DNA of 64,000 nucleotides from Candidatus Hatepunaea meridiana (GTDB lineage Bacteria > Electryoneota > AABM5-125-24 > Hatepunaeales > Hatepunaeaceae). Below the pieces are notes generated by a model. The model did not search any database and was not told the DNA's origin. It worked only from the letters and a program-made list of their open reading frames with translations. Within the stretch, counting starts at the first letter, position 1. Every line of letters starts with the position of its first letter. This document shows, one piece after another, positions 1-56,884 of the stretch. The stretch spans positions 7,033 through 71,032 of the forward strand of contig JAVCDD010000180.1 of assembly GCA_030765125.1 (NCBI GenBank). Reading direction: 5' to 3'. The position numbers were made by a program, and so were the translations under genes.

Positions 1-3000
1 ATACGGCGCGGGTCGGGATCTTCATCCAGTATTATATCCCCGATATCCTCAATGATTTCAGGTGGATCGTTGACCGGATTGATCACCAACCGGAAGTCCA
101 GATCGGTTGAAGCACCCGGTTCGTCGGTGGCTCGAATGGTAATTTCTACGCCGTCCGGGATATTGTAATTCGGTTCAGGTTCGAAATGCAGTACATTGAA
201 CTGGTCGACCTCCATATTCAACTCTTCTGGAGCGTCGATGACCGAAAAGTTCATTTCGTCTTCTTCTATATCGTAGAACACTTCGTCGAGGTCAGCCACG
301 TCAACCCGGTCAGGGTCTTCGTCAATCCTTATATTTTCAATCTGTTCGACAATCCGCGGTGCATCGTTGATGGCGTTAACGACGACTTCGAAGACGTCTT
401 CCGCCGTTTCTTCACCATCTGAAGCGGTGATCGTAACATCGACGTTCCCGTTCCAATCCGCTTCAGGCTGGACATAGAGCCTGCCCTGTACAATGCGAAT
501 ACTAAGCCCTTCAGCGTCGGACTCCTGGAACTCAAGATCGTCATCATCATCCGGGTCAACGAAGTGATCGTTCAGATCGGCAATTAGCCTTTCACCGTCG
601 TCCTCGTCAAATTCCTGATCGGGGATTTCCTCTACTAATATGGGTGGTTGATTTACGTGACCGACGGTAATATCAACCGTTGCGCGGGTCCTGCGACCTC
701 CCTGGTCACTTACTTCGAAGATCGGGCTGTATTCACCTTCATCATCAAGATCGGTCTGCCAGTTGAATGTGCCCGTGTTATCACCATTATCAGTGAATTC
801 CGCGCCGCGGTCTTCAGTTCCGTCGTCAACCAGCATTAACAGTTCCAGTTCGTCACCTTCAAACTCGATGTCAAAATCGTCAGCGGTCAGAGTGAATTCG
901 ATTTCATCGCCCTCATCAACATTTACCTCATCCAGCGGGTCAACCCAGAAGGGAGGGTCATTGACAGGGGTTATGGTAACCAGGAATACATCGTCAATGC
1001 TGTCATCACGGCGCGGGGAAGAAGAATTTTGGATTTTGGATTTTGAATGTTGAATGTCAGTAGCGTAAGCATTCCCGCTTGCGGAAACCATACACGCTGT
1101 TCGTAGCGCCGACGTCTTAACGGCATTACCGGAATTATAAGATGGTCTGAATACCATTAAGGCTCTACCGCCTTGATCATCGTCTGCTGTTACGGTTACT
1201 TCGAGATCATCACCGTTGAAATTCTCCGGAGCTTCCAACAGCAGCATATTATCATCGTCAATCTCTGCCGTAAGAGGTTCATCCGCTTCAACAGAGAATG
1301 ACAGATCATCGTCATCCGGGTCCTCGAATACCTCATCCAATACTGCGACTTCAAACTGACCGAAGTCCTCGGGTACACGCATATCCGCAATCGGGCTGAC
1401 TACCCGAGGTGGCTGGTTGATGTTGTTAACGGTGATATTAACCGTCAGATCATCGGTTCCATCATCTGTGTCGGTTACGCGGAAGACAGGGGTATAAGGA
1501 TCATCACGACTATCATCAGCGCCAGGCGTCCAGGTAAATTCTGCCGTGCCGTCGTCGTTATCAGCAAATTCCCATCCGTCAGGCAATTCACCTTCGTCGA
1601 ATACCGACCAGACCAGATCGTTGACATCATCTTCAACATCACTTGCCTGGAAGACGATATGGAGTTCTTCCTCTTCAGTAACATCAACGTCAATCTCATC
1701 GCCTAAAGCCTCGCCCTGATCGTCTTCGATAACAGGATCATCGTTAATCGAAAGGACGTTGATCGTGAATTCATCGGTAATTGATTCGTCTCTTCGAGGA
1801 GGAGAAGAATGTAGGATGAATTTTGAATGTTGAATGTTGAATGTTGAATGTTGATTATTGATTCGGGCGGCGATCATAATTCGCTGTCCCCAACTGTCCT
1901 CGGCTTCGATAATCACCTCTGATTCACCGAAGTAGTTCGGATCTGGTTCTACGGACAGGATGTGTGTTTCAATATCAATATTAGCGTTCAATTCTTGAAT
2001 CTCATTAGCTTCGATGATGTCAAACTCTAAATCATCACCATCCGGATCATCGAAAACATCGTCCAGGTCGGCGATTTCGATTACACCGGCGTCCTCGTCA
2101 ATATCTATATCGTCAATCGGATTTACAACTTCCGGAGGACGGTTGAAGTTGCCGACGGCGATGGTGATCTCCAGATCGACATCTTCCTCACCATCGGATA
2201 CCGTGAAGATTGGCGTATATTCACCTTCGTCTTCGAACGTTGTCTGCCAGGTAAAGCTTGCCGTACCGTGCTCGTTATCATTGAGTTCCGCTTCATCCGG
2301 CAGACCACCGCGGTCGCTGAATTCGATGGTCAGATCGTTGTTGTTGTCCACGTCATCCTGGGCAATAAGTTCGAAACGGGCAACGTTTCCTTCGTTTACC
2401 TCGTAACGATTGTCTTCAGGATAGCTCTCCCAGACCGGTGGATCGTTGAGCGGATTAACGGTAACAGTGAATTCATCGGATACGGTCTCGTCGCGGCGGG
2501 GTGGAGGGTTGAAATAGGGGGACAGTATACCTATTTCTGTTAATGGACCATCGTTCTTTTCAAGAGCACTCATGAAATAGGTATACTGTCCCCCTATTTC
2601 TGCGAGGCTTCGAGATGGCTGCACATTAACCATCAAACGCCCACCGTTCTCCTCATCATCTGCTGTCACGGTTACGATTAGATTCTCACCGTAAAAATCA
2701 TCCTCCGGTCTCAACGTCAGGATATTCTCATCGCTGATTTCCAGATTCAGTTCTTCAGTACCTTCCACCGAGAAAGTAAGATCGACGCCGTTCGGATCTA
2801 CGAAAATTTCATCCAGGTCGGCTACCTCCAACAGACCGGAATCTTCGTCGATTTCGACATCGTCAATCGGATTTACAACTTCGGGAGGATCGTTGATGGC
2901 TATGCCGGCGATATCAACCGTCAATTCAGCGTTGTCAGGATCGTTGGAGCTAATTGTTATTACGTCGCGGAACACACCGGCGTCTTCGGGAGCGAAGGTT

Positions 3001-6000
3001 ACAGTCAATTCATAGTTGTCTTCGGATTCAATAGTAAGTTCTTCGGCAAAGTCAAAACTGAAGTCCTCACCATCGGAAGTTATTTCGAATATTGTCAGGT
3101 CTCCATTGCCTTCGTTGCTTATGGTCAATATCAGTTCTTCGCTCTCGTGAATTGAAACGTTGCCAAAGTCCAGAACATTGGGGGATATGACAATTGCAGG
3201 ATGCGGGACAAAGTCTGTTACGTCAATGATTACCAAACCATTCTCACCGTCGGCGACGTATGCCATATCTCCCACGATCTGAACCCGTTTGGATAAGCCG
3301 TCTGTGTTATGGGCAGCAATCTCGCTCATATCTTCGGGGTCGGACACGTCGATAATTCCCAAGCCTTCCTCCCCGTCACAAACAAAGGCACTATTGCCTC
3401 GTACATCGATGCCCGTCGCTTCACCTTCGGTATCAAACGAGCCGACTTCAGCCGGATTTTCAGGATCGGATACATCGACCACAATAAGTCCATCATTCCA
3501 TTGTGCTACATAGGCGTAATCCCCGACGATAACGACATCCCAGGCTTGACCCGGAGTATCAAAGGATCCAATCTCATCCGGGTCCTCAGGATTGGAAACA
3601 TCGATAATACGAAGACCGCCTCCAGCAGCAGCTAAATATGCATAGTTCCCGTTAACGTCGACGCCTCGTGAATTACCCGGTGTTTCGACTGTGCTGATTT
3701 CATCAGGGTTCTCAGGGTCGGAAATGTCAATTATACTAAGTGCACTACTCCCTTGGCTCTCATCTGCTACATAGGCATAATCGCCCTCAACGCAGACATC
3801 CCAGGCATACATTTGCCACCTTTCGAGTGCGCCAACCTCTTCAGGGTTCTCAGGATCGGAAATATCGATTATGCGAAGCCCACTTCCGAAGTCCGCTACA
3901 TAAGCATAGTTTCCGATTACGAAGACCGCGCGAGATGTCCCTGGAGTATTGTAGAATCCGATTTCATCTGGGTTCTCCGGATCGGTTACGTCGATCATGC
4001 GAAGACCGCTGTTTCCATCTGCAACATATGCAAAGTCGTTTACAACAAAAATCCCCTGGGCATCTCCCGGTGTGTCGTAGGAGCCTACCTCGTCAATCTG
4101 CGGCTCCCGTCCTGTGCCGGTCAGGTCAACGGTCAGTTCATCGTTATTGGGATCGTCAGATGAAATGGTCATTGTGGCGGTGAAATCACCGGTTTCTTCA
4201 GGTATAAAGGAAACGATTAACTCGAAACTGCCTTCCGGTTCGATAACTAACTCGTCCTCGAAGTTGCTGCTGAAATAATTTTCATCAATTGAAATATCGG
4301 ATACGGTCAGGTCGGCGTTGCCTTCGTTGCCAATAGTGAGAATCAGATCACTCCGCTGGTGGACTGCCACTCCGCCGAAGTCCAGTGATGCCGGTGTTAC
4401 AGTAATACCTGCTTCCGGTTCTTGATGGAAGTAAAAAGCGCCCATATCCGCCTGTGTTTCATCAGGATCGTCCGGCGCGTCCGGATCACCGGAGTCGATG
4501 CAGGGGCTGTTGCGGGTCAGGGAATAATCATCATTGTCTATGTCCGCGAACAATGGATCGGAATCAATGTTCCCCGCTCCGGCGTATCCACCTTGAATAT
4601 CGGAGTAGGCGATGGTTAAACCAGCAGGAGTAGCTCCCGGTTGGTTACCCCAGAAGATCGAGTTCACGATTTGAGCGGAGGAGTTATCATAAGTATGAAT
4701 TCCACCATTGCCGGTCTCGCCGATGTTGCCGGTTATAGTTACGTTTATCAAAGTGGGATCGCTGTCGTGTGTGCTGTAGATAGCTCCACCCCAACGACGG
4801 GCGTTATTGCCCTGTATCAACAGATGATCCAGCGTCGGGGCAGCGTCATTGATGTATATTCCTCCGCCGTAGTTGGAATTTCCATTGCGGATAGTGAAGC
4901 CCATCAAGACCGCATCTACTCCAATTCCATCGCGCAAAGTAACCACACTGCCACCGGCGTTGCCGTCTATGATGGTCGATTCTATATAAGCCTGATCGCC
5001 GGTAGTCAATAACAGGCTGGCAACGACTATCTCCTTACCAATGAAGTTGATGCGTTCAGAATAGGTTCCGGAATGAACAAGCACGGTGTCACCGTTCTCG
5101 ACGGCGTTGATAGCCGCCTGGATGGTTCCATAGTCATCCGGGACGTTGAACAGATGCCTGCCGGGGATACCAATTCCGGTCAGTTCGATGGTGGTTACCC
5201 TTTCGTCAGGATCGTCCGAAATGAGGGTCATAAAGGCTTCAAAATCACCGATGTCGTCAGGTGTGAAGGTAACAGGCAGAGACGCCTGCCCTTCCGGTTG
5301 GATGACAATGGCGTTCTCGAAAGTCGGTACGAATGTCTCCGATCCGCGGATGGTAACTTCCGAGACGGTAAGATCGGCGGCGCCCTCGTTGCGGATAGTC
5401 AGGATCAGTTCTTCGCTGTCATCTATACTGACCTCGCCGAATTCCAGGATTTCCGGCTCAACGGCAATATCCGGAGCCACACCTGAACCGGTCAAGGTGA
5501 TTGTTATTTCATCCTCTTCAGGGTCGTTGGATGCTATGGTTATTATTCCCTCAAAATCGGCGACAGCATCCGGTGAGAAGGTGACGATCAGGTCGGTGTT
5601 GTCGTCGGGTTCAATATTGATTGCATCTTCAAAATCACTGTTGAAGTTGTCACCTTCAATTGTCACTTCGGATACGGTAAGAGGACCTTCGCCTTCGTTG
5701 CCGATGGTTAAATTCATCCGGGCATTATCATCGATTACAACTTCACCGAAGTCAAGATTGTACGTTGAAACTGTAATTGCCGGGTGCGGCATAAAGTCGG
5801 TCACGTTCAGGATGCGCAGTCCGCTGGCTCCATCAGCAACATAAGCGTGAGTTCCGATCACTGAAACATCGTAAGCCTCGTCAGGCGTGTTATAAGATGC
5901 GGTTTCACCAATATTTCCCAAGTCGGAAATGTCTATTACCTGCAGTCCACTCTCCATATCCGCAACGTAGGCGAATCTTCCCAAAACCGTTACGGCAACG

Positions 6001-9000
6001 GCGCGATCTGGCGTGTCAAGTTCACCGAGTTCTTCAATATTTTCGGGGTCGGATATATCGAGGATATGTAAACCACTCTCGTTGTCTGTAACGTAGGCGA
6101 TAGATTCGATGATGAATATTTCCGTTGCAATGTCGGGAGTATCGTAGCGTCCCGTTTCTTCGATATTCTCAGGATCGGAAATGTTCAATACTAACAATCC
6201 ATTAGCGCCGTCTGCTACGTAAGCATATTCACCAATGACTGTTACAGCGTGCGCCAATCCCTCTGTATTAAAGGATCCAACCTCGCTCGGATGCGCCCTG
6301 TTTGATATATTGACCACCCTCAGACCGCTCTCCATATCTGCTATATAAGCGATTGTGCCGACAACAGCGACATCAACGGCATTTCCGGGAGTGTCGAATT
6401 CACCTGTTGGATTGGGGTCTCCGGGATCAAAGACGTCTATGACTTGTAAGCCGTTTTCATCGGCGGCTACGAAAGCGTAGTCTTCCGACACAACAACGCT
6501 CATTGCGGTTCCGATATCACCGGCTGATGCGACCTCGTCAGGGTTCTCAGGGTCGGTTATGTCTATTACTCTTAAGCCTCCGTCACCATCTGCAACGAAA
6601 GCGAAATCTTCTATGACGGTAACTCCGTAAGCTGTTCCATCGGTGTCATAGTTTCCTACTTCGTCGATGTCCGGTTCGCGTCCGGCGCCGGATAACTGAA
6701 CAATTATTTCACCGTTTTCGGGATCGTTTGAGGTGATGGTTAATGTGCCTTCGAAATCACCTGCTTCTTGGGGGGCGAAGGTGACAGACAGGAATGTCTG
6801 TCCTACCGGGTCGATGACAATGGGGTCTTCGAAGCTGCTACTGAACCAGACTCCTTCAACGGTTACATCGGATACGGTTAAAGGACCGTCGCCTTCGTTG
6901 CTGATGGTGAGTCTTTGATCAATACTGCGTTCTATCTGTATAGCGCCGAAGTCCAGTTGTTCCGGTTCAACGACTATTATTGGAACTACGCCTGTGCCGG
7001 TTAATGCTATGGCTATTACCTCTTCATCCGGATCATCAGAGGATATGGTCAGTGTTGCTTCAAAATCACCTGATTCCTGTGGAGCGAAAGTAACGGTCAG
7101 ATCGAATTCCTCATCCGGTTGGATGACGAACGCTTCGTCGAAGTCGCTGCTGAAGTAATTCCCTTCAATTGCGATGTCAGAGACGTTCAATTCAACCAAA
7201 CCATCATTGCTTAATGTAAGCGTCAGATCAGCGCTCTCGCCTCCTGACACCTGACCGAAGTTCAATTCATTCGGATTAACCATTAGATTCGGTTCTTGCG
7301 CCTGGTGGTAGTAGAGTGCGCCCATATCGGCGCGGGTTTCGTCCGGGTCTTGATCGGCGTTGGGATCACCGGTGTCGACGCAGGGGCTGTTGCGCAAGAT
7401 TTGGTAGTCGCTGTTGTCTGCATCGGCAAATAAGGGATCTTCCTCGATGTTGCCTGCACCGGCATAGCTGCCTTCAATATCTGAGAAGGTGATCGTCATA
7501 CCGTTCTGCAGATCAGGCGGTTCGTTGCCCCATATAATAGAATTAATCACCTGAGCACTCGCTCCACCGCCGCCGATGCCAATAGCAGCGTTGTCGCTGT
7601 TTGCAGTGTTACCGGAGATGGTTACGTTGACGAGAATGGGAATGGAACCGCTGGTGGCGTATAGCCCACCGCCGCGTCCACTGGCGACGTTGTCGACTAT
7701 AGCGAGGTGATCGAGCGTGGGCGTGGTCTGATCGCCGTTGCAATAGATACCACCGCCCCAATCGGTGTCGGCATTTCTAACGGTAAAGCCGGTCAGGATT
7801 GCCGCTTCCGTTTCACCGTTGCGGAAGACGACCGTACTCCTGCCGTTTGCGCCGCCGTCAATTATGGTCGATTCGATGTATTCAGCCTCACCTGTGGTCA
7901 GGTACAGACTGCCGACGGTTACGTCTATGCCGTTGAAGTTGACGTTCTCTTCGTAGGTGCCGGGTTGAACCAGCACGATGTCACCGGCTATGGATACGTC
8001 GATTGCTTCCTGGATGGTTTCATAGTCATCCGGCACGTTGACGGTGCGCGCTTCGGTCTCTATACCGGTGCCACTCAAATCAACGGTTACTTCTCCTTCA
8101 TCGGGATCGTCGCTGGTTATGGTCAATACAGCTTGCAGATCGCCTGTTTCACCGGGCAAGAAGGTTACATTAACTTCAGAACTTTCGTCCGGTTGGATGA
8201 CAATGGGGTTTAAAAAGTCGCTGCTGTAGTAGGCGCCTGCAATCGTTATATCGGAGACGGTCAGTTCGATATTGCCTTCGTTAGAGATAGTTATGGCTAA
8301 CTGGGACGACCTGCCCATTTCAGTTTCAGGGAAGGCGAGGGCTTCGGGATCAACGGCGATGTCAGGTGTAAGTCCCGATCCGGTTAAGGGGATGTTTATC
8401 TCACCCTCATCGGGATCATTGGACGTTATGGTCAGCGTTCCTTCGAAATCACCGGTTTCATTCGGCTGGAAGTTTACGTTGAACTGCCGGTTGCCGTCCG
8501 GTGCAATTACGAATTCCTCCTCAAAGTCCGAGGAGAAATATTGACCTTCGATGGAAATATCCGAAACAGTAAGATCGGAATTTCCATCATTGGTGATTAT
8601 CAATGGCAGAGTGGATATTTGTCCCACCAGGCAGTCGCCAAATGGGAAGGAATTGCGGTTAACGGTAATATCCGGCGCCACGCCTGAACCGCTTAGCGCA
8701 ACCTCAACCTCCGGATCGTCCGGATCATCGGAAAGTATAGTCAGGGTTGCATCAAAATCGTTCACCTCTTCCGGCGCGAACGTAACGGTCAGCTCAAAGT
8801 CCTCAAACGGTTGGATGACGATTTCTTCATCAAAATCGGTCAGGAATGTCTGCGCTCCCCGGATTGAAATATCCGAAATGGTCAATTCCCAGTTGCCATC
8901 GTTGCTGATGGTTAACGTCAGGTCTTCAGTTTCACCGGTTACAACCTCACCGAAGTCGAACGCTTCGTCTGAAAGGGTGATTTCGGGGTATTGGACGAAG

Positions 9001-12000
9001 TCGGAGACGTCGAGGATTAATAAACCGTTATTCCCATCAGCCACATATGCATAGTTTCCTACAACAGAAACATCCCAAGAATGTTGAGTTCGGTGATTAC
9101 CAACCTCATCAGGATTCTCAGGATCTGAAACATCTATTAAACGTAGACTGCTTTGACCGGCGGGAGTAAAGCATGCAACATAAGCTATGTTACCTACAAC
9201 AGTTAAGTCTCGAGCATAATCACGTGTATCTTGAGATCCAACTTCGACCAATTCATCTGGGTTAGAAATATCAATAATTCTTAGACCTTCTGTATAATCT
9301 GCTACATAAGCATAGTTTTCTATGACTGAAACACCCAGAGCTGCACCTGGAGTATCATATATTCCTAATCCTCCAAGGTTACGAGCATTAATCAATATTA
9401 AACCTGTCTGATTATCTGCAACATAAGCGATCTCATCAACTATCACAACATCCCGTGCGATTTGCGGCGTGTTAAATGAACCGGTTAATCTTGGATCTTC
9501 AGGGTCGGATATGTTAATAGCTTGCAAACCGCTACGTCCATCAGCTATGTAAACATAATCTCCGCTGACCGCAATACCTTCTGCCCAATCAGGAGTATCA
9601 CAGCTTCCTATTTCATCAGGTTCCTCAGGATTAGACACATCAATAATACGGAGACCGCTCTCGTAATCCGCTACAAATGCCAAATTATCCGAAACCACCA
9701 CATCATAGGCATTTCCTGGAGTTTCACAGAAACCTATCTCATCTGGATTCTCTGGATCAGAGATATCTATTATCCGTAGACCCCCTGCATTATCTGCTAA
9801 ATAGGCAATATCCCCGACAATATCTATACCAAATGTTACACCATTAGTATTATAATGCCCCACTTCCGGTATCGCCGGTTCCCTGCCGACTCCCACCAAT
9901 GCAACATCCACTTCCCCATTATCCGGGTCGTCGGAAGTTATGGTCAGTGTCCCCTCGAAGTTGTTCTCGCTGTCCGGTGTGAACCGAACGGGTAGTTCGA
10001 AGGTGGCGTCCGGTTCGACGATCATCTCTTCATCGATATCCTCAAAGATACTGCTGAAGTTGTCGTGTCCGATTGATATATCGGATATGGTCAGGTCGCC
10101 GTCACCGTCGTTGCCGATGGTCAGGATGAGCTCGACGGTCTGGTCGATTACGACCTCGCCGAAGTTCAGCGATTCGGGATCATGCGTGAGGATAGGCGCA
10201 ACGCCCAGTCCGCTTAAGTTCACATCCAATTCTCCATTATCCGGATCATCGGATGTTATGGTCAGCGTTGCCTGCAGGTCTCCGGTCGCGTCAGGTGCAA
10301 AGGTTACGGTCAGTTCATAGGGCTCGTCCGGTTCGATGACGACCTCACCGTCGAAGTCGCTGGTGAAGTAGTCACCCGCGATTGATATGTCGGAAACGGT
10401 CAGAGGCGCGCGTCCCTCGTTGTTATCAATAGTGAGAATCATATCTGTCTCGTGACCGACTACCGTGTTGGGGAAGACAAGCTCTGCCGGTGTTACAGCG
10501 ATAACGGGAGCCGCTTCCTGGAAGAAGTAGAGGGCGCCCATATCGGCGCGCGTGGTGTCGGGGTCTTCGGGAGCGTCGGGATCGGCTGCGTCAACGCAGG
10601 GGCTGTCCTCAGTGATGTAGAAGTCGTTGTTGTCTGTGTCAGCGAAAATGGGATCGGAATCAAGGTTGTCTACTCCAGCGTAACCGCCCTCGATGTCGCA
10701 GTATGCAACGGTCAATCCGTTCGGCATTCCGGCGGGTTGGTTGCCCCAGACGATTGAGTTTCCGATAGTGGCTGAGGCGCCTGCAAAGATATTAATAGCG
10801 CCGACCTCTTCGTTTGCCGTGTTGCCGTAAAGGGTTATAAAGTTCAGATCAGGATTGGCGTTGTTGGTGGCGTAGATACCTCCACCGCGGCTGGTGGAGC
10901 TGTTTCCGTAGATTACCAGATGATCCAGCGTCGGGCTCGCGTCGTTGATATAGAGCCCACCGCCGAAGTCGGTTGAGCCGTTGCGAATGGTGAAGCCTAT
11001 CAGTTCCGCTTCGTCTGTCTCACCGTTGCGGAAGGCGACTACACTACGCCCGTTGTCGCCGCCGTCGATTATGGTTGAGGCTATGTCATCCGGATCGTCG
11101 CTCTCGATATATTGGCTGGCAACCGTGATGTTTTTGCCGCGGAAATTGATGTTCTCATTATAAACACCGGGGTCGACCAGAACGCGGTCGATGTCAATGG
11201 CTTCGTCAATGGCTGCCTGGATGGTCTCGAAGTCATCAGGGACGTTGTATTCGCGGGGCTGTGCTTCGATGCCGGTTCCTGACAGGGCAACAGCAAGCTC
11301 ACCGTTGTCGGGATCGTCTGAGGTGATGGTCATAGTGGCTTCGTGGTCACCGGTCTCGGTGGGGGAGAAAACGACAGACAGGAATGTCTGTCCTACCGGT
11401 TCTATGATTATTTCGTCTGTAAAGTCGCTGCTGAAATAATCCCCTTCAAAGGTTACGTCTGTAATGTACAGGTCTGTATCGCCGGTGTTGCTGATGGTTA
11501 TGACAGACAAGGATGTCCGTCCCACCTCAGTATCAGGGAATCCAATGGCTTCGGGGTCTATGGTGATTTCGGGGTATTCTACGATGCCGCCGGTAACTTC
11601 GGAACAGTTGAAGATGTAAAGCCCTTCATCCTCATCGGTGATATAGGCGTAATTGCCGGATACATACAAGCCGATAGCGTAGCCTGGAGTGTCGTGGAAA
11701 CCAATCTCTTCCGGTTCGGCAGGGTTTGAAACGTCTATCAAGCGCAATCCCTCGTCACCATCGGCAACATAAGCGAAATCATGCGCGACAAAGACGCTTT
11801 CGGATGAGCCGGGAGTGTTTACAAAGCCGACCTCTTCCGGTTCTGCGGGGTTTGATACGTTTATAATGCGAAGTCCACTGCCTGAAGCGGCGACATAAGC
11901 ATAGTCACCGGCTGCGAAAACTCCATAGGCACGACTCGGCATTTCGAGATTGCTCACTTCATCCGGATTTTCCGGGTCGGACACGTCGATTATGCGCAGT

Positions 12001-15000
12001 CCACCGGCTTGATCTGCAAGATAAGCGTAGTCACCTGAAACGTAAACTGAAAAAGCTTGACCGGGTGTGTCGAACGCTCCAATCTCATCGGGATCATCGG
12101 GGTTGGAGACATCAATTATACGCAGACCGCTGGCGCCGTCTGCAACGTAGGCAAGATTGTCTTTGTAATAAACAGCATACGCGGCACCCGGGGTGTCGAA
12201 GGTTCCGACCTCATTGGGATTTTCGGGGTCTGAGATGTCGATTATGCGCAGTCCGCTGGCAGCGTCCGCAACGTAAGCATACGAACCAGCAACGTCTATG
12301 CCGGTTGCTTCACCGGGGGTGTCGTAGGAACCGACAGCCTGCGGTTGACCGGGGTCGGATACGTCGACAATCTGCATACCTTCCCAGTAGTCAGCTATGT
12401 AAGCCAGCCCTCGCGAGACGTAGACGCCTTCGGACATTCCGGGCGTTTCGTAATGACCTACCTGCCGGATCTGCGGACCGGTTCCGATGCCGGTTAAATC
12501 AACTTCAATCTCCTCGTTTTGAGGGTCGTTGGAGGTGATGGTCAGTGTGCCAGCGTAATCGATTGTTTCTACAGGTGTAAATGTTACGGTCTGTTCGATG
12601 CTGTTGTCGGGTTCTATGGTGATTTCGTCCTCAAATACGGTTTGGAATACTTCGTCACCCTGAATGGTAATATCAGTGATGATAAGATCCTCATTTCCTA
12701 CATTGGTGATGGTGAGGATAAGATCGCGGTCAATGTCAATGGCAGACTCGCCGAAGTCGAGCGCACCCGGTGAGATCCTGATAGTCGGAGGCTGGGGTTG
12801 CTGTTGGTAGTAGAATGCGCCCATATCGGCACGTGTTTCATCGCTATCCTGGGGCGAGTTCGGATCACCGACGTCTATACAGGGGGAGTCTTCGGTCAGT
12901 TGGAAATCATCATTGTCAAAGTCGGCAAATAAGGGATCCTGATCGATGTTGCCGGCGCCGTTATAACCACCCTGAACGTCAGAATAGGTAATGGTTTGTC
13001 CACCAGGAAGCGCTGCCGGGGTGTTTCCCCAGAATATCGAGTTGACTGCCTGTGTTTGAGCGCCACCCCCTCCAACACCTATTCCGCCGTTACCGCCATC
13101 GGCGTCGTTGTTGGTGAATGTTATGTTATTCAGGAGCGGTTGCGCACCAGTGGTGACATAGATGCCTGCACCTCGTCCGCTGACGTGATTGCCTGTTATC
13201 AATAGATGATGCAATGTAGGATTAGCGCCACGGATGTAAGAGCCGCCGCCGAAGTCGGTATCTGCATTGCGGATTGTGAAGCCTGCGAGGACAGCTTCGT
13301 TTGTCTCACCGTTGCGGAAGACCGTTACGCTTCTGCCGTTGGCGTCACCGTCGATAATGGTCGAAGCGATGTAATCAGGATCACCGGTTGTGATATAGAG
13401 GCTGCCAACGACGATATTCTTACCAATAAAGTCAATGATCTCAGTATAGGTTTCAGGTTGAACCAGTACTGTGTCACCGTCAGCAGCGTTGTCGATTGCT
13501 TCCTGGATGGTGTCGTAGTCGTCCGGAACGTTGATTATAAAATCTCGTCCCGATCCGGAAAGAGCTACTGCGAGATCCTCGTTCTCAGGATCGTCAGATG
13601 CTATGGTAAGTGTTCCAACGAAATCATCAATGTCATCCGGTGAGAAGGTTACGGTTAATTCGCGACTTTCATTCGGTTGGATGACGATCTCATTCTCGAA
13701 ATCGCTGATGAAGTTGTCCCCTTCAATAGTTATATCGGATATAGTCAGATCACCGAAACCGGTGTTGCTGATAGTGAGTATCAGGTCTGCTTCGTCGTCA
13801 ATCGGAACAGCACCGAAGTCCAGGGCATCCGGAGATACGTCAATAGCGGGGATCGCTTCGACACCGATTCCGGTCAGGTTCACATCCAGGTTCTCGTTAT
13901 CCGGATCGTTAGATGTGATTACAAGCGTGCCGGCGAGATCACCGGTATCATCCGGCTGGAAGGTGACAGTTACATCAGAAGTGTTGCCCGGTTCGATGAC
14001 CACTTCATTCTCGAAATCTGAACTGAATATGTCTCCTTCAATAGTAATATCCGAGACATTCAGGTTTTCACGTCCTCTATTTCGGATGGTTAGAATCAGA
14101 TCGGCGCTCTGGTCGACTACTACCTCAGCAAAGTCAAGCGCTTCAGGAGAAACAACGATGCTCGGTCCCTCTGCCTGGAATAACGGGAATGTTCCCATAT
14201 CGGCGCGTGTGCCGTCCGGGTCTTCGGGTGCATCAGGATTGCCTGTATCTTTACAGGGGCTGTCATCGGTCAGGTGAAAATCATCATTGTCGGGATCAAC
14301 GAACAATGGATCTGTATCTATGTTGCCTCTGCCGTTATAACCGCCCTGGATATCAGAGAATGTGATCGTCTGGTTGGCGGGAATATCTGGTGGGGCATTA
14401 TCCCAGAATATGGAGTTTACAATAGTAACCACTGATCCACCGAAAACATCCAGAACACCGTTGTTTTGCTCAGAATCATTGCGGGTCAGGGTAACGTTTG
14501 TCATCGTAGGACTACCGCCGCCATAGGCAATTATCGCACCGCCCCATCTTACGGTATGGTTATCGGTGATCAATAAATGATCCAGTATCGGGCTGCCGCC
14601 ATTACAGAGTATTCCCCCTCCGAAATCAGCGGCGCCGTTGCGAATTGTAAAACCGGACAGGATGGAATTCACTGTCTCACCGTTGGCAAAGGTTACAACG
14701 CTAGTGTTATTAGCATCGCCATCGATTATGGTTGATTCAACGTAATCCGCATCACCTGTAGTAATAAACAGGCTGCCTACAATGATTTCCTTGCCGTTAA
14801 AGTTGATGTTTTCTGTGTATGTCCCGGGCGCTACCAAAACAGTATCCGTGTCGATGGCATTATCAATAGCTTCCTGTATAGTATCGAAATCATCAGGCAC
14901 ATCGTGTACATGATCGAGCGGTTCGATGCCAGTTCCAGTTAAAGCGACGTCAACTTCTTCTTCATTCGGGTCATCGGATGTAATAGTGAGCGTTCCCTGG

Positions 15001-18000
15001 TAATCTTCTATATCATCAGGTGCAAACGTTACCGTAACATCATAACTGTTGTCCGGTTCGATTACGATTTCATCTTCTTCGAAGTCGTGCGTGAAAACAT
15101 CACCTTCAATAGTGATGTCAGTTACGGTCAGATCGGTACGACCATTATTCCTGATTGTGAGCGACAGTTCAGCGCTCAATTCAAGCTCAACCTCTCCAAA
15201 GATAAGTTGAGCCGGTATTACCGATATGTTTGGCTCTTCCGGCAGCTCGAAGTAGAAGGCGCCCATATCATTGCGTGTTTCGTCAGGATCCTGTGGTGAA
15301 TTCGGATCACCTGCATTTATACAAGGGGAGTCTTCAGTTAATTGGAAATCATCATTATCAAAGTCGGCAAATAAGGGATCGGAATCAAGATTCCCTGCTC
15401 CGGCGTATCCACCCTGAACATCGGAATATGTAATAGTCTGACCGCCAGGAAGCGCTGCAGGTGTGTTTCCCCAGAATATCGAGTTGATTACCTGGGTTTG
15501 AGCGCCGCCCCCACCGACTCCGATTCCACCGTTGGCACCGTCGGCATCGTTGTTGGTGAATGTTATGTTATTCAGGAGCGGTTGTGCTCCGGTAGTGGCA
15601 TAAATCCCTGCGCCGCGTCCGCTGACATGGTTGGCGGTTATTAATAGGTGGTGCAATGTTGGACTGGCGTCACGGATGTATGAGCCGCCTCCGAAGTCGG
15701 TATCTGCATTGCGAATTGTGAAACCGGCAAGGACGGCTTCGTTTGTCTCGCCGTTGCGGAAGACCGTTACGCTTCTGCCGTTGGCGTCACCATCAATAAT
15801 GGTCGAAGCGATATAGTCGGGATCACCTGTGGTGATATACAAACTGCCGACAACGATGTTCTTGCCAATAAAGTCAATGATTTCAGTATAGGTCTCAGGT
15901 TGAACCAGCACCGTGTCGCCGTCAACAGCGTTGTCGATTGCTTCCTGAATGGTATCGTAGTCATCCGGAACATTGATTATGTAATCCCGTCCCGATCCTG
16001 AAAGAGCAACAGCGAGATCCTCGTTCTCCGGATCGTTAGATGCTATGGTTAACGTTCCATTAAAATCACCAACGTCATCCGGTGAGAAGGTCACATTTAA
16101 TTCATAGCTGTCATCCGGTTCGATTACAACCTCATTCTCGAAATCGCTGATGAAATTGTCACCTTCAATGGTTACATCGGATATAGTCAGATCACCGAAG
16201 CCGGTGTTGCTGATGGTTAGTATCAAGCCTGCCTCGTCGTCAACCGGAATTGCTCCAAAGTCCAGCGCATCCGGCAATACTACTATTGCAGGAATCGCTT
16301 CGACACCGATTCCGGTCAGGTTCACCTCCAGATCTTCATTGTCCGGATCGTTGGATGTGATTACAAGCGTACCAGCGAAATCTCCGGTAGCATTCGGCTG
16401 GAAGGTAACGATTACTTCAGAAGTGTTGCCTGGCTCGATGACTACTGCATTCTCAAAATTGCTGCGGAAGTTATCCCCCTCAATTGTTATATCGGATACC
16501 CTTAAGTCTTCACGTCCTCTATTTCGGATGGTGAGCGTCAGATCAGCGCCCTGGTCGACTACTACCTCAGCAAAGTCGAGAGCTTCAGGGGAAACAACGA
16601 TACTTGGTCCTTCAACCTGGAACAGCGGGAATGTTCCCATATCAGCGCGTGTGCCGTCCGGGTCTTCGGGTGCATCAGGATTGCCTGTGTCTTTACAGGG
16701 ACTGTCATCGGTCAGGTGAAAATCATCATTGTCGGGGTCAACGAACAATGGGTCTGTATCTATATTGCCTCTGCCGTTATAACCGCCCTGAATGTCGGAG
16801 AAGGTGATTGTTTGGTTAGCCGGTATATCAGGTGGGTCGTTATCCCAGAATATGGAGTTTACAATAGTAACCACTGATCCACCGAAAACATCCAGAGTGC
16901 CGCTATTTTGCTCGGAATCATTACCGGTCAGGGTAACGTTTCTCATCGTAGGACTACCGCCGCCATACGCAATTATCGCACCGCCCCATCTGACGGAATG
17001 GTTGTCGGTGATCAATAAATGATCCAGCATCGGGCTACCGCCATTACAGAGTATTCCCGCTCCGAAGTTAGCACCGCCATTGCGGATAGTAAAACCTGAC
17101 AGGACGGAATTCACTGTCTCACCGTTGGCAAAAGTTACTACGCTCGTGATATTCCCATCACCGTCAATAATTGTTGATTCGACGAAATCTGCATTACCTG
17201 TTGTAATAAATTGACTGCCGACGACGATTTCCTTGCCGCCAAAGTTGATGTTTTCAGTATAAGTTCCGGGCGCTACCAACACAGTATCCGTATCGATGGC
17301 GTTATCGATGGCTTCCTGAATGGTATCGTAGTCGTCGGGAACGTTGATCCTGAAACTTCTCCCGATTCCAGAAAGAGCGACAGCCAACTCTTCGTTCTCC
17401 GGATCATCTGATGCAATAGTAAGTGTCCCATTAAAATCACCTACGTCATCAGGAGAGAATGTAACCGTTAATTCATAACTGTCATCCGGTTCGATTACAA
17501 CCTCATTCTCAAAGTCGCTGCTGAAGTTATCGCCTTCAAAGGTAACGTCCGAAACGGTCAGGTCACCGAAACCCACGTTGGCGATAGTGAGTATCAGATC
17601 CGCATCGCCGTTAACCACTACCGCACCGAAGTCCAAAGCATCTGGAAATGGATCAATAGAAGGGATAGCTTCCACGCCGATTCCTGTCAGATTAACCTCC
17701 AATTCCTCGTTATCCGGATCATTGGATGTAATTACAAGCGTTCCGTTAAAATCACCTGTATCATCAGGCTGGAAAGTGACAGTTACTTCATAAGTGTTGC
17801 CCGGCTCGATGTCCACTTCATTATCAAAATCGCTTCTGAAGATGTTCCCCTCAATCGTTATATCAGATACATTTAAGTCTTCGCGTCCCCTGTTTCTGAT
17901 AGTGAGCGTTAGATCGGCACTCTGGTCGACTACAACCTCAGCAAAGTCAAGCGCTTCAGGAGAAACAACGATACTTGGTCCCTCTGCCTGGAATAGTGGG

Positions 18001-19862: not shown

Positions 19863-20000
19863 GATGGGTACCTTTTGTATGATTTCTCGATTGAATTGTG
19901 AAGGTTATGATTGTAGATTATCTACAAAACAGCATTATAATTTAACTCTAAACCAGGTTCAAAGTCAAGTCTTTTCATAAGATGAAAATAGAAACTGAAA

Positions 20001-20082
20001 TCGAGAGACAGTATGCTTGTTTTTACCCATTTCCTTAATAAAGTTCCAGATTGTAATAAAATCAGGTATACTGTCCCCGATT
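20001..20082. repeat. Degenerate member of the GGGGACAGTATAC hairpin element family (arms gagagacagtatgc / caggtatactgtcccc) in the intergenic region upstream of gene 1
   Basis: Inverted repeat visible in the sequence, related to the 2511-2600 and 23858-23943 elements. Confidence 0.5.
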
Positions 20083-23830: not shown

Positions 23831-23857
23831 TATCTTTACTCCTAAGATGGGATTGAT

Positions 23858-23943
23858 AAATAGGGGGACAGTATACCTATTTCATAAATACTCTTTGAAA
23901 TAACGACGGTCAATAAAGAAATAGGTATACTGTCCCCCTATTT
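23858..23943. mobile_element. Intergenic palindromic element with the same 26-27-bp arms as the coding copy at 2511-2600 (aaatagggggacagtatacctatttc ... gaaataggtatactgtccccctattt), 34-nt spacer
   Basis: Arms identical to the 2511-2537/2574-2600 arms and the spacer is unrelated. Lies between the Mrp-NifX stop (23962) and the OYE start (23830) on the same strand. Confidence 0.8.
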
Positions 23944-23961
23944 CCACTTTGTGGTGAGATA

Positions 23962-25689: not shown

Positions 25690-25745
25690 TGTGATCGTCT
25701 CTTTTATGAACCACAGATTACGCGGATTTAACAGATTATTTTGTT

Positions 25746-25808
25746 TAGAGTCCAAGCTTCAGCTTGTTTTAGCTATCTAACCAGCAAGCTGAAGCTTGAA
25801 CTCTGAAC
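25746..25808. repeat. Hairpin MITE/REP-like element (tagagtccaagcttcagcttg ... caagctgaagcttgaactctgaac)
   Basis: Inverted repeat of the AGAGTCCA-xCTTCAGx family. Confidence 0.6.
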
Positions 25809-26276
25809 TGAAAAAATCTGCGTAATCTGCGGATGAAAAACAATATCAATTTACTAAAAAACAATTCCAAAGTCAATTATTTCAATCCTTTCTATTGATT
25901 TTGAATAAATGTAATTCCAGCATTTGGTGTGCATACGTTGCATATATTAACAACGGGGAATAAAACCCAATCCTTATTGCGATATGGTTTCTAATGTAAA
26001 AGATATTGGCACGACTTTTGCAACAGAATATTACAGAGAAGAAATTCCCTCGGTTCATATGATGATTTGTCCGCCTAACCTGGAAACGCGGCTTGAGCAG
26101 GTACGGTTTACATGGTTAGGACGCGCTGGTGGTCGGCGCGCTTCCCGGTAGGCGGAAAAAGTATGGGCTGAGGTTTTTTTATAGATCAATGCAGTCGCCG
26201 TTGGAGACAACTACAACTACAAATACCAATCAACGCCGGACATAATCCGGCGCTATTACTCTATAGGACAAAGAAA

Positions 26277-34243: not shown

Positions 34244-34377
34244 GGGATAGTATGCCTGTTTTCTGTAAACTTTCTGTCATGGCACCGTCCCTGCCAGCAA
34301 CGTTTACGACAATTCTATCAACCGTGGCAGGTTGACAGCAGTAAAAGCTATCTTTAGAAAAACAGTTATACTGTCCC
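34244..34377. repeat. Composite degenerate GGGGAtAGTATgCCTGTTTTCT-type inverted-repeat element carrying an internal caaccgtggcaggttgacagc hairpin (related to 50861-50883)
   Basis: Arms 34244-34266 and 34356-34377. Inner hairpin is similar to the 50.86 kb copy. Confidence 0.5.
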
Positions 34378-34436: not shown

Positions 34437-34616
34437 CCCTCACTCAAGCGCTATAATTTTTAGATGACATAACCTGAAACGATCTCACCGATCATTTTAC
34501 CATCCCAGTTCACCTCAATAACTCCTCCGACTTCGAAATTGAAGTTGAAATATTTCCAATTAGCTGAACATCATTAATGATTCTGTTGATTAAGTCAACA
34601 ATTTCAGAATTACCCT

Positions 34617-34714
34617 CCCATTTTGTCATTCCCGCGAAGGCGGGAATCCAGAGTTTTCAAGTATTTAACAAACACCATCTGGATTCCCGGCCTTCGCGGG
34701 AATGACAAAATGGG
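34617..34714. repeat. Palindromic element cccattttgtcattcccgcgaaggcgggaatccag ... ctggattcccggccttcgcgggaatgacaaaatggg
   Basis: 35-bp near-perfect inverted repeats. ttttgtcattccc termini are shared with the composite element at 50647-50941. Confidence 0.65.
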
Positions 34715-34848
34715 AAGTATTTCAACAGGATCATTAATATAAGAGATTAAATATTTGGAATTGGGACATAACTCCTCTTGAAAGTGAAATGGATTTTACT
34801 ATATTAGGATAACTAATTCACATTTCCAAACACAAAAGGAGTTACAAA

Positions 34849-35252: not shown

Positions 35253-35364
35253 GTCGGACAAGAGTGTCCAACCTACTAAAACATCGGTAGGATAGGCATT
35301 CCTGTCTGTCGTACACCTCTTAATTATAGGCATCGTTTGACAGACAAGAATGTCTGTCCTACCC
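35253..35364. repeat. Cluster of three GTAGGACAGACATTCCTGTCTGTC-family palindromes (35253-35276, 35286-35310, 35339-35364)
   Basis: String matches (0-3 mismatches) to the coding copies in gene 1. Confidence 0.65.
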
Positions 35365-35556: not shown

Positions 35557-35640
35557 TAATTAATATTGTTGCTTCAGGTGTTAACACCTTTGTTTATGTT
35601 GCGTCAGGTGTTAACACCTGACGCAACATAAACGCAGTGA

Positions 35641-50646: not shown

Positions 50647-50941
50647 CTTTTTGTCATTCCCTTTAAGAATAGAGTTCAGAGTGCGCGCTTCAGCGCGTAA
50701 TGCCTTTAGAATAAGGAAAATAGCCAACACGCGCTGAAGCGCGCACTCTAAACTCTATTCTTCATACTTGGTTGAGTCGCTGGCGACATGGCTTTTCCTT
50801 TGAAAGTAGCACCCCGCTATCAGGTCACCTCGCTTAACAGCAATGCTTATGACAGCGCTGTCAACCGCGGCGGGTTGACAGCGTAAAAACAGCCTGAAGG
50901 CTGGACTCTGAACTTCTATTTTTCAAGGGAATGACAAAACG
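50647..50941. mobile_element. Composite nested palindromic element. Outer IR ctttttgtcattccc/gggaatgacaaaacg encloses a 31-bp-arm hairpin (50666-50760), a caaccgcggcgggttgacagcg hairpin (50861-50883) and a cagcctgaaggctggactctgaac unit (50889-50917)
   Basis: All inverted repeats can be read directly from the sequence. The outer arms match the 34617-34714 family. Confidence 0.65.
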
Positions 50942-56608: not shown

Positions 56609-56701
56609 GGGTAGGACAGACATTCCTATCTGTCGGTAGGTTGGACACTCCTGTCCGACAATCATCGTGTCAGACAATCCCGAAGTTTCGGGATGACCTA
56701 C
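56609..56701. repeat. Intergenic palindromic repeats: ggtaggacagacattcctatctgtcggtagg, ttggacactcctgtccgaca and cccgaagtttcggg
   Basis: String matches to the 35.25-35.36 kb cluster and to the coding copies in gene 1. Confidence 0.65.
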
Positions 56702-56768: not shown

Positions 56769-56884
56769 TTAGCTTCTGTTTTATCTGATAAAAATGTCTT
56801 CGCAACTCTGTTTAATTCTTGGTAAGCAGGAGTTTTTTATATTATATTATAGAAACAGACGTTCAAGAACAACCGGAGAATAAA

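Follow-up and report, generated by a model that had tools for sequence, protein, structure and literature searches.

An in-frame palindromic repeat with transposase-associated arms in a giant protein of Candidatus Hatepunaea meridiana

The stretch of DNA analysed here (64 000 nucleotides; hereafter the window) carries on its minus strand a giant gene whose product, MDP8239314.1 (P0154), is annotated as belonging to Ca. Hatepunaea meridiana of the phylum Ca. Electryoneota. This organism is an Antarctic lake bacterium, and Ace Lake metagenomes were included in our searches. The frame of the giant gene is open for 6634 codons within the window and for 6901 overall. A T9SS sorting domain closes the protein 1117 residues beyond the 90-nt repeat element described below, recognisable domains resume C-terminal to this insert and, on either side of it, the homologue P0001 can be aligned without a change of frame. 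A protein search returned no near-identical orthologue of the giant protein (the best match is 47% identical), which is the only member of its 90% cluster. The features of the locus are collected in Table 1.

Table 1. Positions of the element, its host gene and loop, and related features in the window
Feature	Position	Strand	Remarks
Giant gene (in-window part), MDP8239314.1	3..19862	-	6901 aa; choice-of-anchor D / LVIVD / Ig-like; T9SS C-terminal sorting domain
Paralogous expanded loop 3, GGRALMV...SPRRD	1005..1172	-	Holds heptamer array 1024-1055 (GAATTTT x4.6)
Paralogous expanded loop 2, GQRIMI...PPRRD	1788..1889	-	Holds heptamer array 1817-1854 (TGAATGT x5.4)
Expanded loop GGRLMV...PPPRRD of Ig-like (Big_9) domain	2490..2645	-	Holds the element; predicted disordered
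90-nt palindromic element, REPIN-like dimer of two hairpin arms	2511..2600		Residues 5755-5784 of the 6901-aa protein
Left arm GAAATAGGGGGACAGTATACCTATTTC, 27 nt	2511..2537	+	Single strand: 8-bp stem, 11-nt loop GGGACAGTATA
Spacer, 36 nt	2538..2573		Homologous to spacers of other family members
Right arm, 27 nt	2574..2600	-	Exact reverse complement of left arm
Degenerate intergenic copy	20007..20075		19-nt arms, 84% complementary
Intergenic copy, 88 nt, opposite orientation	23857..23944		Between OYE-like and Mrp/NifX-like genes; arm mismatches 0 and 1
Degenerate intergenic copy, longer spacer	34244..34377		19-nt arms, 84% complementary, 96 nt between

The first-pass annotation described a 90-nt element with perfect 27-bp inverted repeats inside this gene, and the description holds: the arms (2511–2537 and 2574–2600) are 100% complementary over 27 nt and enclose a 36-nt spacer (27 + 36 + 27 = 90 nt). 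Also as described, the element supplies exactly 30 codons without a stop to the minus-strand frame 3..19904, encoding EIGGQYTYFMSALEKNDGPLTEIGILSPYF between GGRLMV and PPPRRD. Only one of its six frames is stop-free, and this is the frame that the gene uses. The window contains four arms, with 0.00 expected from shuffles, and seven copies of the 15-nt arm core, with 0.89 expected. The RNA fold of the element has −50 kcal/mol (z = −8.4) and contains a perfect stem of 27 bp. No terminator-like tail or site was found at the element on the gene strand, the whole window gave no Rfam match at the gathering threshold and a literature search for a 12-mer of the arm returned only unrelated primer matches. 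A word search found the element peptide in no other protein, and phmmer over 1.84 billion representatives recovered nothing beyond the giant protein and a single spurious translation of a tandem repeat.

The site had been called a linker, which is imprecise: a loop predicted to be disordered, it belongs to an Ig-like domain and joins the last two strands of that domain. In the AlphaFold model of this domain the pLDDT is 86–92, with residues 83–132 (model numbering) at only 31–45; this low-confidence stretch lies between strands 69–80 and 137–147, includes the element as residues 99–128 and begins where the Big_9 profile match is interrupted (residue 83). In the paralogous domains the loop is longer by 0, 0, 34, 50 and 53 residues, and the homologues P0001 and P0006 carry other long sequences at the position of the element. 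Paralogues and homologues thus already have a long loop here, and it varies among them. The heptamer arrays reported in two of the paralogous loops are present; they are microsatellites of the ordinary in-frame kind, for which the intergenic DNA of the window showed no counterpart.

The intergenic copy between the OYE-like and Mrp/NifX-like genes had been credited with matching arms, correctly, and with an unrelated spacer, which it does not have. In reverse orientation the whole copy is 87.6% identical to the coding element over 89 nt, and the two spacers agree at 26 of 36 positions (72%) after reverse complementation, a score reached by none of 2000 shuffles. Both degenerate relatives mentioned in the first-pass annotation exist as well. 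Window and Ace Lake metagenome contigs together yield a subfamily of 15 distinct members with lengths of 82–93 nt and alignable spacers. Six of the 15, the coding copy included, have lengths divisible by three, and about nine of the 84 frames of the 14 non-coding members are free of stops. None of the metagenome members lies within a convincing gene; most have stops in all frames, and the few open frames are short or start at the element. At locus L019 the element is directly upstream of a sulfatase start. Arm pairs in general are dispersed over unrelated and mostly intergenic places, with one intragenic case among about 125 distinct elements examined; no second intragenic copy was found at ∼120 loci, where open frames were GC-driven or began at the element. 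Alignment of the 15 members revealed no flanking direct repeat, no target-site duplication and no conserved target.

Each arm is a hairpin of 7–8 bp with a conserved 11-nt loop, GGGACAGTATA. Folded as single-stranded DNA, the arm forms a stem of 8 bp with a loop of 11 nt, and the sequences flanking the core covary: in a set of 243 distinct arms drawn from many genomes, 3.55 of six possible Watson–Crick pairs are formed, compared with 2.61 ± 0.07 in 1000 shuffles (maximum 2.82), and the covarying pair types include TA and AT exchanges. The 12-nt arm core is identical across many phyla. There is no Y1 transposase gene inside the window. A contig represented by loci L109 and L123 carries a Y1_Tnp gene (Pfam E = 1.5e-13) with complete elements on both sides. 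Its product (P0034; 218 aa, motifs NHVHLI, LWQERF and YVELNP) matches 'transposase [Ca. Hatepunaea meridiana]' at 100% identity, a protein from the species that owns the giant protein of the window, and the contigs of both P0034 and P0154 are present in sample ERZ27315452. Among solved structures P0034 is closest to E. coli TnpA-REP (4ER8), to which its catalytic Tyr aligns, and its best NCBIfam match is REP_Tyr_transpos (72 bits; IS200 scores 18 bits). An extension of ∼80 residues follows the Y1 core, and Pfam at E ≤ 0.001 gives Y1_Tnp only. At six of six independent homologue loci, one of them from the same species, the transposase gene has arms on either side at a distance of 100 nt or less, and at all six they are inverted, with the + orientation upstream and the − orientation downstream. 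The arm motif at these loci is GGGGACAG, or GGGGACAC in variants, and variant cores accompany variant proteins.

Three published classifications meet in this type of enzyme: TIRYT/TIRtron (Di Nocera et al., 2013; PMC3733652), TnpAY1 subclass 2.1 (Quentin et al., 2018; PMC6006769) and RAYT group 1 (Bertels et al., 2017; PMC5581495). Subclass 2.1 proteins have a median length of about 238 aa and are characterized by NHVH, W[EQ] and YIELNP or Y[IV]HLNP (PMC6006769, Table 1), as well as by a C-terminal helix–turn–helix-like extension (Bac_DnaA_C / HTH_23 / HTH_28); the inverted-repeat motif of TIRYTs is GGGGWSAS (PMC3733652, PMC6006769). P0034 fits this group because of its NHVH, WQ and YVELNP motifs and because GGGGACAG matches GGGGWSAS. 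On this sequence comparison, the arms of the element family appear to flank transposase genes of the RAYT group 1 / TIRYT / TnpAY1 subclass 2.1 type.

The resemblance to TIRYT/TIRtron systems covers the ∼220-aa Y1/HUH transposase with NHVH, WQ and Y-x-x-x-NP, the bordering of its gene by GGGGWSAS inverted repeats, the partial self-complementarity of repeats that are dispersed over the genome in dimers and clusters, and the spread over many phyla. The present family differs in its Electryoneota host, in the identity of its 12-nt core across many phyla and in the clear stem-loop formed by each arm; no REP-like sequences or structures were found for subclass 2.1 in the earlier survey (PMC6006769). 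The literature that we consulted gave no earlier case of a TIRYT-type repeat lying in frame within a gene. With the REP/REPIN–RAYT systems of E. coli and Pseudomonas the element shares inverted hairpin pairs separated by a spacer, many mostly intergenic copies and units that flank the cognate Y1 transposase gene. In contrast to REPs, the arm GAAATAGGGGGACAGTATACCTATTTC contains neither GTAG nor GTGG, so that the hairpin foot lacks the GT[AG]G tetranucleotide. It is the loop of the arm that is conserved, not the foot, and the transposase belongs to another subclass.

Classical DDE-derived bacterial MITEs are likewise small, non-coding sequences with terminal inverted repeats and multiple copies. 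The first-pass annotation was right in recognizing a dispersed palindromic repeat of mobile type, but the name MITE does not suit it, because no target-site duplication is visible, no DDE-transposase partner was found and the arms, themselves hairpins, flank Y1/HUH (RAYT/TIRYT) tyrosine-enzyme genes. A LexA box, an attC site, a Tn3/Tn7-type transposon end and T4-like translational bypass were dropped as candidates after the Y1 transposase association had been found. Ogata et al. reportedly described in 2000 Rickettsia palindromic elements (RPEs) lying in frame in unrelated protein-coding genes at fold-compatible sites. A review treats RPEs in the same terms, as palindromic repeats in frame in unrelated protein genes whose peptides occupy fold-compatible sites (PMC10969869). 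The likeness to RPEs is one of behaviour, that is, of an in-frame intragenic palindrome in another host and with another sequence; RPEs are about 100–150 bp in length and frequently intragenic, whereas the present family has the single intragenic case among about 125, and no transposase partner is established for RPE-1. In-frame intragenic REP dimers encode 20–30 residues, which, it has been argued, flexible linkers or loops can accommodate (PMC3733652), and REPs also occur in frame inside transposase genes (PMC6006769). The kind of event proposed here is therefore not new, since both in-frame REP dimers and Rickettsia RPEs have been published.

We favor, with a probability of about three in four, the reading that the element is a non-autonomous repeat of REPIN layout from the RAYT group 1/TIRYT family that landed in a tolerant loop and was kept as an in-frame and near-neutral insert. 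The transposase gene would lie in another part of the Ca. Hatepunaea meridiana genome, and the enzyme, by analogy with its family, would presumably recognise the arm hairpins on single-stranded DNA and copy or move the dimer. One copy may then have arrived, by landing or by copying, in a surface loop that was long and disordered beforehand. This loop, in an Ig-like domain of the T9SS-secreted protein, would tolerate almost any sequence and would have gained only 30 residues; the copy would have persisted because its length is divisible by three and it is free of stops in the frame used. The effect on the protein is assumed to be most likely neutral or nearly so; apart from a very stable mRNA hairpin of 27 bp, no side effect is obvious. 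Against strict neutrality, a 27-bp RNA duplex within an open reading frame might be costly, and the perfect preservation of the arms could reflect either recency or some constraint. Against a mobile element, no case of transposition by a subclass 2.1 enzyme is known. We infer the insertion rather than observe it, because neither an insert-free allele nor a second assembly was found: no metagenome contig carrying the arm overlaps the element site, a search through the OYE-like neighbour protein found nothing, and one through the radical-SAM protein found only short contigs, all of which stop at window position 19408.

A first alternative is adaptive diversification, in which PRRD-ended loops would be dedicated insertion-tolerant sites that repeatedly take up repeat DNA in frame, a process selected because it varies the surface of the giant protein. 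Three paralogous loops with unrelated interiors (the element in one, heptamer arrays in two) are consistent with this proposal, as are an in-frame octamer array in a third gene about 50 residues before NPPPHLIPRRD, the different long loops of homologues at the element site and a longer linker in gene 2 (with an extra SPLQGNDNE) that shares an exact 16 nt with an intergenic repeat arm, a weak match (E = 0.011). However, a demonstrable mobile element is present in only one loop, nothing intergenic in the window corresponds to the microsatellite arrays, any unconstrained disordered loop is expected to vary, no population data show polymorphism and the other repeat-derived segments of the gene are outside such loops. 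We consider this alternative unlikely. The suggestion that these are insertion-tolerant sites thus stands for the loop in question, which is long, variable and predicted to be disordered; that PRRD loops in general 'capture' intergenic repeats is weakly supported, with one real case.

The repeat-derived segments outside the PRRD loops stem from a GTAG-type REP of 24 nt, whose family in the window is separate from that of the element. Two exact copies (6783–6806 and 11373–11396) occur in the giant gene, one in each of two diverged paralogous domains, at matching positions and with the length unchanged, and they encode a structured strand of another domain type. Palindromic repeats might accordingly act as templates that rewrite the coding DNA of giant surface proteins in frame, with the PRRD loops as the most permissive targets, a proposal that we regard as decidedly speculative and probably wrong.

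A role at the RNA level, with the 27-bp hairpin acting on the giant mRNA as an RNase III site, a stabiliser or a translational pause and the peptide being incidental, would be in keeping with the fold of −50 kcal/mol (z = −8.4) and its perfect stem, with the perfect arms of the coding copy beside two decayed intergenic ones and with the general proposal that REPs are RNA elements (PMC3733652). It is nevertheless very unlikely: the gene strand has no terminator-like tail, the family occupies unrelated and mostly intergenic places, no conservation is evident at the element site and a recent insertion explains perfect arms equally well. Less credible still is a repeat mis-assembly that put the element here. 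The site is supported by one MAG contig only, and short-read contigs from this organism come to an end within the giant gene, at 19408. Yet this copy is unique in sequence (the nearest is 87.6% identical), the sequences to its left and right are parts of a single Ig-like domain read in one frame, and an exact stop-free insert of 30 codons is unexpected from a chimeric join. A decaying gene broken by a stop or frameshift, the outcome that the first-pass annotation had kept in view, has nothing to recommend it beyond the presence of the insert and is already contradicted by 6901 open codons, domains beyond the insert and an intact terminal T9SS sorting domain.

On the landed-repeat reading, this locus shows cleanly that a protein can tolerate in frame a palindromic repeat associated with a transposase; the case comes from a little-known phylum and has a clear structural context, the predicted disordered loop of an Ig-like domain. 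If the template reading were true, it would imply templated patch conversion from repeats to genes and repeat-driven variation of surface proteins. A by-product of the analysis is of more use than the insertion: the arms of the group 1 / TIRYT family are stem-loops whose loop of 11–12 nt is identical across many phyla. Group 1 / TIRYT is the largest and least understood group of RAYTs, and these arms give a concrete DNA substrate for tests of its enzymes.

Two 27-nt arms (2511–2537 and 2574–2600), perfectly complementary and 36 nt apart, form a 90-nt element that makes up exactly 30 stop-free codons of a minus-strand frame that stays open for 6634 codons, from 19904 as far as the window edge. 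The element reads EIGGQYTYFMSALEKNDGPLTEIGILSPYF, preceded by ...GGRLMVNVQPSRSLA and followed by NPPPRRD..., and the arm and frame analysis bears out the first-pass annotation in its length, perfect arms and open codons. Four copies of the arm lie in the window versus none expected from shuffles, and seven of a 15-nt core versus 0.89 expected. The degenerate relatives described earlier are present as two decayed intergenic copies. A further, near-perfect intergenic copy (23857–23944) is 87.6% identical to the coding copy over 89 nt in the opposite orientation. Its spacer had been called unrelated; compared alone as reverse complements, the two spacers are 72% identical, with a score reached by 0 of 2000 shuffles, and that description no longer stands.

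Coordinates of the element copies and of other repeat and linker features (window positions, except for contig L106)
Feature	Position	Strand or frame	Remark
Coding copy of element	2511–2600	minus-strand frame	perfect arms
Near-perfect intergenic copy of element	23857–23944		opposite orientation to coding copy
Decayed intergenic copy of element	20007–20075
Decayed intergenic copy of element	34244–34377
GTAG-type REP GTAGGACAGACATTCCTGTCTGTC	6783–6806, 11373–11396	minus	exact sense-strand copies in giant gene
GTAG-type REP GTAGGACAGACATTCCTGTCTGTC, intergenic copies	35287–35310, 35339–35362, 56611–56634
GTAG-type REP GTAGGACAGACATTCCTGTCTGTC in contig L106	6123, 6169
Linker-motif region of second giant gene	35641–50094	minus	e.g. 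38083–38094, 41119–41130, 44068–44079, 46981–46992
PRRD loop end in third gene	57599–57610	plus
Further intergenic palindromic repeats	34616–34715, 50649–50939, 25703–25840, 63802–63891, 62249–62526, 35567–35633

Against 1.84 billion representative proteins, the 30-residue peptide has a single real match, residues 5755–5784 of a 6901-residue 'choice-of-anchor D domain-containing protein' (MDP8239314.1) from Candidatus Hatepunaea meridiana; no other carrier was found in public protein collections. This organism, a MAG recovered in the anoxic zone of Ace Lake (Antarctica), belongs to Ca. Electryoneota, a phylum of the FCB superphylum (PMC9324843). The record is identical to the window frame from the ATG at 19862. 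Downstream of the insert the protein has recognisable LVIVD, HYDIN-like, Big_9 and cadherin-like domains, and its C-terminus, outside the window, is a typical T9SS C-terminal sorting domain. A pseudogene at the insert is ruled out, since these domains continue and the terminal secretion signal is in frame. Look-ups by protein, cluster, metagenome contig and neighbour gene found neither an insert-free allele nor an independent assembly of the site. Two short-read contigs from different samples (L129 and L130) match the window at 100% identity and end at the same base, 19408, in the 5' part of the giant gene, which suggests a repeat-induced assembly break there.

The C-terminal part of the giant protein consists of two alternating Ig-like domain types. 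The element-bearing type spans 95–99 residues in its two plain copies and 133–152 in three others, owing to a loop that adds 34 to 53 residues between the two final strands. In an AlphaFold model built with paralogues and three homologues, the domain has a pLDDT of 86–92, and residues 83–132, between strands 69–80 and 137–147, fall to 31–45; the element encodes residues 99–128 of this segment. The Pfam Big_9 match ends at residue 83 (profile position 79 of 89). Among homologues from other organisms, P0003 lacks the loop, and P0001 and P0006 have long unrelated loops also ending in PRRD. Taken together, the domain lengths, model, profile break and homologues indicate that the insertion site is an old, long, hypervariable intradomain loop, predicted to be disordered. 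What the first-pass annotation called a 'linker' does not join domains; it is a loop inside one Ig-like domain.

A genome scan with the pattern GGGACAGTATAC-N37-67-GTATACTGTCCC, taking one genome per species, returned at least 98 loci (L001–L098). The matches listed include Alpha- and Gammaproteobacteria, Acidobacteria, Nitrospiraceae, Elusimicrobia, Aminicenantes, Hydrogenedentota, Planctomycetes, Thermodesulfobacteriota, Mycobacteriaceae and others, and among them one MAG frequently holds several copies. MAGs of many phyla share an identical 12-nt core, GGGACAGTATAC, which lies in the loop of a covarying stem (L001–L098 and L121–L128): its flanks differ by genome yet pair with one another. 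Over a set of 243 distinct arms, Watson–Crick pairing is seen at 3.55 of 6 positions versus 2.61 ± 0.07 in shuffles, and the same pair position shows both TA and AT. Because the flanks pair, each arm is a stem-loop, with a 7–8 bp stem and a conserved 11-nt loop (GGGACAGTATA), and two such hairpins in inverted orientation make up the element. Scanning metagenomes with the arm found in the window yielded 22 loci, mainly from Ace Lake samples, with lengths of 82–93 nt and alignable spacers. None of these lies in a convincing gene; most have stops in all frames, and the few open frames are short or start at the element. No second convincing intragenic copy of the family was found among about 120 loci, and no target-site duplication is visible around aligned members. 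Nested palindromes of several arm modules occur at L049 6234–6321, L062 2856–2956 and L116 2040–2200, the last a palindrome of ∼150 nt in which GAAATAGG units repeat and two core pairs are nested. Outside the arms, many loci have incomplete tandem copies of 'flank + GGGGAC'.

Clustering of ORFs from all fetched loci identified a Y1_Tnp protein adjoining the elements. One contig (L109/L123) carries its gene with a complete element on each side; the product matches a 'transposase' of Ca. Hatepunaea meridiana at 100% identity, and the sample from which this contig comes also contains one that is 100% identical to the window. In all six loci examined (Hatepunaea, Electryonea, Smithella and three other MAG or metagenome contigs), the transposase gene has arms at most 100 nt away on both sides, + upstream and − downstream, and the core variants GGGACAGTATAT, GGGACACCATAC and GGGACACCTTAC go with variant transposases. 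Among solved structures, E. coli TnpA-REP (4ER8) is the closest, and its catalytic tyrosine aligns. The top NCBIfam model, 'REP-associated tyrosine transposase', scores 72 bits, under its 80-bit equivalog cut-off (IS200, 18 bits), and there are at least 7999 homologues, with 60–70% identity across phyla. From its motifs (NHVH, WQ and YVELNP) and length of 218 aa, the protein is a predicted member of TnpAY1 subclass 2.1 by the criteria of PMC6006769; this subclass corresponds to Bertels' RAYT group 1 (PMC5581495) and Di Nocera's TIRYT (PMC3733652). The authors of PMC6006769 found no REP-like structures for subclass 2.1. TIRYT genes have flanking inverted repeats with a common GGGGWSAS motif, sometimes self-complementary and arranged in dimers and clusters (PMC3733652); GGGGACAG of the present arms matches this motif. 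The 'palindromic MITE' of the first-pass annotation is thus a palindromic repeat of mobile type that lies in frame within a tolerant loop, as proposed, but it is a RAYT/TIRYT-type hairpin dimer and not a classical MITE. In contig L125, tandem Y1 transposase genes (2221–2871 and 3001–3651) adjoin RHS/YD-repeat genes, with two + arms before each gene and two − arms after the pair. At L101 642–773 / L102 4007–4138, a 27-residue piece with 74% identity to the transposase N-terminus adjoins a solo arm; this piece may be left over from a transposase gene.

By analogy with its relatives, the Y1 enzyme would mobilise the dimer via single-stranded DNA, and the coding copy probably inserted at its site rather than arising in place. 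It would then persist by passing a reading-frame filter. This filter can be seen in the data: of six frames, only the one used by the giant gene is open in the coding copy. Among the 14 non-coding members about 9 of 84 frames are open, and length is divisible by three in 6 of 15 members. Perfect arms in the coding copy, beside decay in two intergenic copies, are consistent with a recent event. The predicted mRNA stem is 27 bp (−50 kcal/mol, z −8.4), and no terminator-like tail was found after it.

The proposed capture of repeat DNA by PRRD-terminated loops is solid in a single case, the 90-nt element. The heptamer arrays reported in both paralogous loops are real, but they have no intergenic counterpart in the window and are in-frame microsatellites. 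PRRD looks conserved at the protein level, because its three sites in the first giant gene use different arginine codons, and the arginine-rich ends suggest putative proteolytic processing sites. The linker motif RD-N-A-S-R-T-L-R-S-(4-15 residues)-G-P-R-R-D occurs about nine times in the second giant gene. One of its linkers, with an extra SPLQGNDNE relative to paralogous linkers, shares an exact 16-nt match (48488–48503 versus 50922–50937) with an arm of the intergenic 'GTCATTCCC' palindromic repeat (E 0.011), which could be chance. An octamer array (ATCACAAC ×4.5; 57409–57444, plus strand, gene 56816–62230) reads in frame as QKSQHHNITTSQHQ about 50 residues upstream of NPPPHLIPRRD, so that a further secreted giant protein contains an in-frame microsatellite. 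Intergenic palindromic repeats are unusually abundant in this genome, and at least four more families occur in the window (e.g. TTTTGTCATTCCCGCGAAGGCGGG and GTTTAGAGTCCAACCTTCAGGTTG), of which the TTTTGTCATTCCCGCGAAGGCGGG family is also found in contigs L115 and L119 from Ace Lake. Another REP family, of the canonical GTAG type (GTAGGACAGACATTCCTGTCTGTC, stem GACAGAC/GTCTGTC), is present both intergenically and in the giant gene, where the chance expectation is 0. The two coding copies specify PVGQTFLSV and occupy equivalent positions in two of the 17 paralogous choice-of-anchor-D-like domains; domain length is unchanged and the DNA beside the two copies has clearly diverged. Templated conversion is one possible source, and these copies bear on the idea of repeat capture.

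We found no report of such an in-frame insertion for this repeat family or for Ca. Electryoneota. REPs within coding regions are documented (PMC3733652), in-frame REPs occur inside transposase genes (PMC6006769) and the Rickettsia RPE precedent is summarised in a MITE review (PMC10969869). Because in-frame REPs and RPEs are already published, the insertion in the giant gene is a further example of a described phenomenon.
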